Below are positions 45,291 through 45,650 of a stretch of 64,000 bases of DNA, piece after piece. The notes below the pieces were generated by a model. That model was not told the origin of the DNA. It did no database searches and saw only the letters and a list, made by a program, of their open reading frames with translations. Each line of letters opens with the position of its first letter. Position 1 is the first letter of the stretch. The stretch lies in assembly GCF_002854065.1 (NCBI RefSeq), contig NZ_CP024147.1; one strand, written 5' to 3'. The position numbers were made by a program, and so were the translations under genes. This DNA is from Escherichia coli. GTDB lineage: Bacteria > Pseudomonadota > Gammaproteobacteria > Enterobacterales > Enterobacteriaceae.

Positions 45291-45463
45291 AATAATCCTT
45301 GAATAATATTCCATAAGGTAGTTCATTAATTTGAAGTATGACTATTCATGGCTCAAATATATAAAGATATATTCAAACATTAATGAGAAATGATTGTTTG
45401 TTACCTAAATTTACAATCATTCCTCATTAGGACGCATATTGTGCATTTTAAAGTTACTTGAGC

Positions 45464-45504
45464 AATTTAAATTTACTTAAATTAGGGTTAAGTAAATTTA
45501 AATT
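45464..45504. promoter_or_regulatory. perfect 17-bp inverted repeat in the yadN (fimbrial operon) promoter region
   Basis: AATTTAAATTTACTTAA-attaggg-TTAAGTAAATTTAAATT, in a 360-bp AT-rich intergenic region. Confidence 0.4.
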
Positions 45505-45650
45505 TCAAAATGGAGATGTTTCGTGTAAGGAGATGGGTAGGATGCATTTAAATATTAATTGATGTAGCTAGTGTCTACTCTAATAGGATTGGTTTGGGAA
45601 TTGGAATGATGTGATTTTCGGAAATTATTTATATTCACGAAATTAATAAA

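Follow-up and report, generated by a model that had tools for sequence, protein, structure and literature searches.

The window, that is the whole 64-kb stretch of Escherichia coli DNA analyzed here, carries the yad operon for Yad chaperone-usher fimbriae, and its annotated genes and elements around this locus are panC, panB, the yad genes, an IS2, folK, pcnB, gluQRS and dksA. The major subunit gene yadN is preceded by folK on the same strand, and the 360 bp of intergenic DNA between them (45291-45650) have a G+C content of 26.7%. Within this region lies an inverted repeat, hereafter IR-B, of the form AATTTAAATTTACTTAA-N7-TTAAGTAAATTTAAATT (45464-45504), the arms of which are complementary at all 17 positions. 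A first-pass annotation of the window had reported this palindrome, and we confirmed both arms and the spacer.

44706-45290, minus strand: yadN, major subunit gene of the Yad chaperone-usher fimbriae (ATG at 45290-45288)
45458-45461 and 45505-45508: outer extension of IR-B, TTGA pairing with TCAA in the DNA fold of a 54-nt segment
45464-45480: proximal arm of IR-B (near yadN), plus strand AATTTAAATTTACTTAA
45481-45487: 7-nt spacer of IR-B, plus strand ATTAGGG, without conservation
45488-45504: distal arm of IR-B (far from yadN), plus strand TTAAGTAAATTTAAATT, yadN-sense strand AATTTAAATTTACTTAA
45651-46130, minus strand: folK, the gene upstream of yadN, ending at 45651

The 17-bp stem contains a single G-C pair, and the outer extension adds 4 bp across a 2-nt bulge (GC at 45462-45463). 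As a single strand, the repeat folds at about -15 kcal/mol as sense RNA (z = -6) and at -13.4 kcal/mol as a DNA hairpin (z = -7.8). The first-pass annotation had considered a 17/17 match unlikely by chance even in AT-rich DNA. This is in accordance with 5000 dinucleotide-preserving shuffles of 45291-45650, searched for perfect repeats with spacers of 0-20, none of which contained a 17-bp repeat; the longest was 14 bp and occurred four times. When spacers of 3-20 are allowed, the 64-kb window has just two perfect inverted repeats reaching 12 bp or more, of which IR-B is the longer. The other one (36695-36723) is a G+C-rich 12-mer, ACCGCACCGCCA, with a 5-nt loop between panB and a yadC-like adhesin gene and is probably a terminator. 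Allowing up to 3 mismatches, the window holds no further copy of an IR-B arm except for a weak adjoining 14/17 match. A 53-bp query likewise found one locus per genome, the two places returned for each genome being the two strands of the palindrome, and a dispersed repeat of the REP/BIME, ERIC or MITE type was rejected on these grounds. The improbability of a 17/17 match alone does not indicate function, because template switching perfects imperfect inverted repeats in E. coli (PMC5941160, PMC7202029).

The yad operon is non-functional in the window, as a 1331-bp IS2 (40525-41855) splits its usher gene htrE. CUWW06 matches the window at 100% identity over the 561 bp of the yadN-folK query and has the same IS2 elsewhere in htrE; the operon is broken in both, either by two independent insertion events or because the element transposed. 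In-frame ATG codons precede the annotated yadN start at 45291-45326. The string ATGGAAT upstream of yadN is invariant across all alleles, and an upstream ATG is used as the yadN start in some genome records (621 bp in TW10598).

Published data support the first-pass description of the yadN upstream region as AT-rich and H-NS-silenced. The folK-yadN intergenic region of K-12 is listed as an H-NS-bound "promoter island" (PMC3661553), yadN shows H-NS binding in three data sets (PMC5797941), and the operon is H-NS-repressed in CFT073 and EC958 (PMC13245861). Loss of hns raises the activity of a CFT073 yad reporter more than 100-fold, and human serum induces this reporter even when H-NS is absent (PMC13245861). 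Over-production of SlyA raises yadN expression 2.4-fold (PMC5797941), and in one table of that paper (Table 2) the LeuO column for yadN appears empty. Up-regulation of yadN has also been reported upon inhibition of Rho by bicyclomycin (PMC10980228). Yad fimbriae are described as not phase-variable and have recently been linked to tissue colonization by extraintestinal pathogenic E. coli in bloodstream infection (PMC13245861). The papers we found contain no earlier description of cis elements of the yad promoter.

Allele families upstream of yadN

We compared 18 E. coli alleles from four families with the corresponding regions of E. fergusonii, E. albertii and Pseudocitrobacter faecalis, the other species being reached via protein homologs and the contigs encoding them. 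A homolog from Salmonella salamae was left out, as its gene context is different. In all compared species a yadN-like gene comes after pcnB-folK, together with genes for a chaperone and an usher. The yadN upstream region (window ~45291-45620) is hypervariable in E. coli while folK alongside is nearly identical: there are at least four allele families that are only ~45-62% identical to each other. Divergence starts just past the conserved block GAATATAAATA..TTCCGAAAAT, 15-45 nt beyond the folK stop, and this edge looks like a recombination boundary. The intergenic allele of the window (W) is rare, occurring in about 43-45 of 5426 complete E. coli genomes, and is ~77% identical to that of K-12. 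The repeat takes the following forms:

W family (window): 17 of 17 positions matched, spacer 7
K2 (IR53017, CUVET16-465): 15 bp perfect with a 5-nt loop (16/17)
K-12 type: 11 bp perfect with a 3-nt loop (14/17)
C family, phylogroup B2 type: 13 bp (13/13) in CFT073, 16 bp in MCJCHV-1 and ChlosBP-23-1, spacer 9
T family: 6 bp
E. fergusonii: about 5 bp

All E. coli allele families in the comparison have an inverted repeat at this position, with varying length. Conservation of the palindrome across E. coli yadN upstream regions, which the first-pass annotation had proposed as a check, thus holds for its position and not for its perfection, the repeat being degenerate at 14/17 in K-12 and shrinking to 5-6 bp in one family. 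The same annotation had counted a degenerate palindrome in closely related strains, combined with a lack of effect on expression, as evidence against its reading; as the repeat is degenerate in related strains, the sequence part of that objection partly applies. From the center of the repeat to the ATG the distance is 193-197 bp in the W, K and C families and 182 bp in the T family and E. fergusonii, the T-family value being explained by a 10-bp deletion adjoining the repeat. A TTTAC-N15-GTAAA spacing is constant in the W, K and C alleles except ACN002. The arms show no variation among W alleles. The sampled second W genome, which stands for the 44 genomes that differ from the window at 1 of the 53 bases of the query, deviates from it only in the spacer (ATCAGGG versus ATTAGGG). 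The perfect 17/17 state is specific to this one rare allele.

At the other end of the series, the hairpin of the T family and E. fergusonii reaches about -2 kcal/mol and is no more stable than shuffles, and nothing alignable to IR-B was found in the upstream regions of E. albertii and Pseudocitrobacter. With a core of 5-6 bp in the former and none in the latter, a long palindrome is evidently not required by every yad operon. Upstream of their yadN-like genes, E. albertii and Pseudocitrobacter have unrelated DNA, in which both share a GGTGA-N6-TCACC dyad ~15-50 nt before the ATG of the fimbrial gene; judged by its sequence, this dyad resembles the arrangement of CRP half-sites. Several E. coli genomes carry IS1 copies in the folK-yadN intergenic region, and yadN or more of the operon is deleted in them. 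In one such genome, CUPF09, the IS1 end joins the palindrome precisely where an arm gives way to the spacer.

Candidate promoter and second inverted repeat

A simple sigma-70 matrix scan yielded one candidate promoter that recurs in all four families, which no other site does. It is located next to IR-B, and a second inverted repeat (IR-A) follows on its yadN side.

45460-45465, minus strand: candidate -35 hexamer TTGCTC from the sigma-70 matrix scan
45438-45443, minus strand: candidate -10 hexamer CACAAT, within the conserved TGCACAAT block; inferred start near 45431
45381-45429, minus strand: IR-A, with arms at 45381-45397 and 45413-45429
45400-45414, minus strand: CpxR-like site GTAAATTTAGGTAAC in the IR-A loop, matching GTAAA-N5-GTAAA at 9/10 positions, which is at chance level in the window

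The two hexamers are separated by a 16-bp spacer, the -10 being CACAAT or CAAAAT, and occupy a fixed alignment column. In 11 of the 15 alleles scanned, the pair is among the six best-scoring sites. Its weak scores would be expected of a cryptic operon; a stricter promoter scan called no promoter in the folK-yadN intergenic region. The candidate -10 site is located inside a CFT073 fragment having promoter activity. From the primers given in S3 Table of PMC13245861, this fragment is 205 bp long, begins 15 nt upstream of the CFT073 IR-B and stops 24 nt before the ATG. These primer positions place an active, regulated promoter within a fragment that has IR-B at its upstream end. Relative to the inferred start, IR-B would span -73 to -33, with the distal arm at -73 to -57 and the proximal arm at -49 to -33, where it would abut the candidate -35 hexamer. 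This placement is conditional, since promoter-like signals are numerous in this promoter island.

IR-A pairs at 16 of 17 positions on the plus strand and, including one G-U pair, at 17 of 17 on the yadN-sense strand, where it folds at -20.2 kcal/mol. Its outer 7-bp stem is retained in all 12 distinct alleles as well as in E. fergusonii. Two of its pairs covary, and one-sided changes mostly result in G-U pairs on the sense strand. IR-A would span +3 to +51 of the inferred transcript, starting 2-3 nt past the start, and could be a 5'-terminal mRNA hairpin or an operator. The tandem consensus of CpxR is GTAAA-N5-GTAAA; the half-sites of GTAAATTTAGGTAAC are kept in every allele family and in E. 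fergusonii while the 5-nt spacer between them varies. A scan of 44500-46500 against Rfam 15 with permissive E-values returned nothing relevant at gathering score. The sub-threshold chance hits, plant miRNA precursor models with 20-22 bits compared with gathering scores of 96-195, fall on IR-A and not on IR-B.

Conservation and symmetry of the IR-B arms

Between families, the 34 arm positions of IR-B are 79-94% identical, compared with 45-62% for the remaining divergent intergenic DNA, and the spacer shares only 1-4 of its 7 positions. For most comparisons of W or K with C or T alleles, the difference between arms and remainder gives Fisher p values of 2e-5 to 3e-3, bearing in mind that these comparisons share lineages and are mutually non-independent. 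The excess persists when A/T sites alone are counted and is therefore not an effect of base composition. In a sliding window of 17 columns, using the mean pairwise identity of one representative per family, the distal arm is the best conserved block of the divergent region (0.79). It is accompanied by the block 45484-45468 (0.76), which covers most of the proximal arm and part of the spacer, by the TGCACAAT block (0.78) and by the 5' and 3' arms of IR-A (0.77 and 0.68). Apart from the folK end and the ribosome-binding region, all other windows of the divergent region reach at most 0.59, with a mean of 0.57. The comparison suggests that the IR-B arms behave as a selected cis element, with arms conserved above background and a spacer free to vary. 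It also reduces a hypervariable region of 360 bp to five short conserved blocks, namely the IR-B arms, the -10-like block and the IR-A arms, which are direct targets for mutagenesis and pull-downs.

Several differences between alleles occur symmetrically in both arms. The W and C families are distinguished by a mirrored substitution (A-T versus T-A) and by a mirrored loss of 1 nt, one from each arm. One pair of the C family is T-A in ChlosBP-23-1, G.A in CFT073 and G-C in MCJCHV-1. Compared with K-12, an adjacent double change in K2 restores two pairs, from 14/17 to 16/17. In an ungapped alignment of 16 alleles, 81.6% of the cells are paired, versus 31-54% when the partner is slid by 1-3 columns. 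The covariation score is 0.143 compared with 0.118 in shuffles, 36 of 500 of which reach 0.143. The covariation is thus modest and suggestive, not decisive, as mirrored swaps arise easily in a sequence of nearly two letters, A and T.

In E. coli, template switching preferentially turns imperfect into perfect inverted repeats, and it has been proposed as the reason why perfect inverted repeats are over-represented and persist in Proteobacteria (PMC5941160, PMC7202029). The clustered or mirrored changes raising complementarity by which corrected quasi-palindromes are recognized are found here between K-12 and K2, within the C family and between W and C. An inversion of the spacer between families, a signature of template switching, was sought by eye and nothing convincing was seen. 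IR-B might be a functionless mutational by-product, a short chance repeat in unconstrained AT-rich DNA that was lengthened and kept symmetric by template switching alone; we regard this as unlikely. Its arms vary in length with the lineage, extending outward in W and C and inward in K-12 (11 bp, 3-nt loop) and K2 (15 bp, 5-nt loop), which fits such an origin, as do the adjacent double substitution that restores pairing in K2 and the two different single changes that each restore the same pair in the C family. Both the mechanism and the persistence of perfect repeats are documented for E. coli and other Proteobacteria (PMC5941160, PMC7202029), and the T family and E. fergusonii have a repeat of no more than 5-6 bp, other genera none. 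Nevertheless, template switching acts on the likeness of the arms within one genome and keeps no arm sequence across lineages, so it does not explain why the arms exceed their flanks in identity between families around an unconserved spacer. What it may well explain is the perfection of IR-B, which probably owes more to quasi-palindrome correction than to need, since related strains manage with 5-14 matched positions.

Interpretation of IR-B and comparison with known systems

The suggestion of the first-pass annotation that the palindrome is a site for a regulator or nucleoid protein gains support from arms that are conserved over their flanks around a spacer that is not, and finds none in the consensus of any known factor across alleles. 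We matched 16 consensus patterns for 15 regulators (SlyA, CRP, FNR, Fur, ArcA, CpxR, IHF, Lrp, TyrR, OmpR, RcsB, PhoP, LysR-type T-N11-A, NagC and OxyR), and none fits IR-B consistently across families. The SlyA operator fits poorly: the best overlapping matches reach 7-9/12, lie at the edge of IR-B and shift in position between alleles. Each IR-B arm contains TAAGTAAATT, which matches the H-NS motif tCGATAAATT at 7/10 positions and includes the central T-A step that the motif requires. The same score of 7/10 was reported for a footprinted site in the fis promoter (PMC2094087). The region contains 15 matches at this level compared with 9.2 ± 2.9 in shuffles, a marginal enrichment. A link to palindromic C-boxes was dropped as well, the paper on restriction-modification controller proteins reporting only a transposon insertion in yadN.

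We propose with moderate confidence that IR-B is the allele-specific perfected form of an operator-like inverted-repeat cis element of the yadN region. Judging from the allele comparison, it is probably a control site. Selection would preserve both arms and disregard the spacer of an element that is placed directly upstream of the -35 hexamer of the sole position-conserved promoter-like site and would touch it. Its ligand may be H-NS, for which it would serve as a nucleation site, or else a protein with symmetry of the two-fold or tandem kind, and the element may act jointly with IR-A just downstream of the start in setting the silenced versus the induced state of the yad promoter. Its extension to 17/17 would stem from quasi-palindrome template switching that copied one arm onto the other, the perfection itself being unneeded. 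A narrower and speculative version, which we consider unlikely, makes IR-B the operator of a putative serum activator of the yad promoter acting independently of H-NS; here the dyad would be kept by selection and not by mutation bias, and IR-B and IR-A would form a two-site switch flanking the core promoter. IR-B and IR-A offer concrete targets in the search for the serum-responsive Yad regulator. Moreover, the alleles of this locus form a clean natural series in which one and the same inverted repeat ranges from 5 to 17 bp, and this helps in telling apart selection acting on symmetry and mutation by template switching.

If IR-B acted at the level of RNA, it would form a hairpin in read-through transcripts from pcnB-folK, either stabilizing their 3' end or shielding the yad promoter as a weak terminator. 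We consider this quite unlikely. The position downstream of folK on the same strand, with no canonical terminator between folK and yadN, would suit such a role, and so would the folding of the sense RNA (-15 kcal/mol, z = -6), the TTTAATTTGTT that follows the 11-bp stem of K-12 and the increase of yadN under bicyclomycin (PMC10980228). In addition, the changes in the proximal arm of the T family would be U-G wobbles on the sense strand. An intrinsic terminator, however, requires a short-looped, G+C-rich stem of about 5-14 bp directly followed by a U-tract. With one G-C pair in 17 and GCTCAAGTAAC on the sense strand after the full stem, only a shortened inner stem preceding TTTAAATT, IR-B elicits no call from the terminator scan in 45150-45800. 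Furthermore, the T family and E. fergusonii have practically no hairpin (about -2 kcal/mol), and the intermediate states in CFT073 (G.A) and K-12 (A.A, C.T) are not wobble pairs.

The PmrA/BasR box is YTTAAK-N5-YTTAAK (PMC10927774), and the core of IR-B, ACTTAA-N7-TTAAGT, can equally be seen as TTAA repeated in direct orientation at an 11-bp period, that is as a response-regulator site of this type. The match is 11/12 in both the W allele (CTTAAC-CCTAA-TTTAAG) and K-12 (CTTAAT-TTTGA-ATTAAG) and 10/12 in the T family and E. fergusonii, and its inferred position from -61 to -45 would suit an activator of the OmpR/PhoB family. We nevertheless hold a BasR site to be very unlikely, as the window contains such matches at chance frequency (4 found versus 3.1 expected) and the C family, with ACTAA-N9-TTAGT at this place, no longer has the box. 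This family includes CFT073, the strain in which serum induction was observed; a link between BasR and yad was not found in the literature.

A cruciform that senses supercoiling or temperature and thereby modulates H-NS silencing is likewise very unlikely. The repeat of the window is perfect, nearly pure A/T and short in its spacer, lies behind a promoter, where negative supercoils accumulate, folds well as a DNA hairpin and has its symmetry held in several lineages. Against this, with arms of 13-17 bp and 7-9-nt loops the repeat ranks at the lower end of what extrudes as a cruciform in vivo, and alleles without a foldable repeat exist. Finally, the recombinase site proposed by the first-pass annotation, or one end of an invertible phase-variation switch of the fimS type, is close to refuted: although arms about a short center superficially recall recombinase core sites and some fimbrial operons use invertible promoters, the arms are 7 bp apart at one locus per genome with no second copy to flank a segment (the match on both strands being due to the palindrome), no recombinase gene is annotated nearby (panB, yad genes, folK, pcnB), no inverted variant exists among 19 alleles, and Yad is described as not phase-variable (PMC13245861).

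IR-B resembles corrected quasi-palindromes (PMC5941160, PMC7202029) in that it is a short interrupted repeat whose clustered or mirrored differences raise complementarity, and in being perfect in some lineages and imperfect in others. Unlike in a product of template switching alone, its arm sequence is conserved between distant alleles well above the flanks. Like an intrinsic terminator, it places a stem-loop behind a gene of the same strand, but its stem is nearly pure A-U and lacks the U-tract. The TTAA-N7-TTAA core in the W allele and K-12 is similar to the PmrA/BasR box, at the level of a chance match; as that box is a direct repeat, the outer palindromic arms of IR-B would be irrelevant to it. 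Like H-NS nucleation sites (PMC2094087), IR-B lies in an AT-rich, H-NS-bound, silenced promoter region, whereas H-NS sites require no dyad symmetry and 7/10 matches are common in this region. Conserved half-sites, a free spacer and an H-NS-silenced fimbrial promoter are also found in the dimeric anti-H-NS operators of the SlyA/MarR family (TTAGCAAGCTAA or TTA-N6-TAA), although IR-B differs from the SlyA operator in its spacing of N7 between 9-bp cores. Overall, IR-B belongs to a familiar class, the inverted-repeat element in a silenced promoter.
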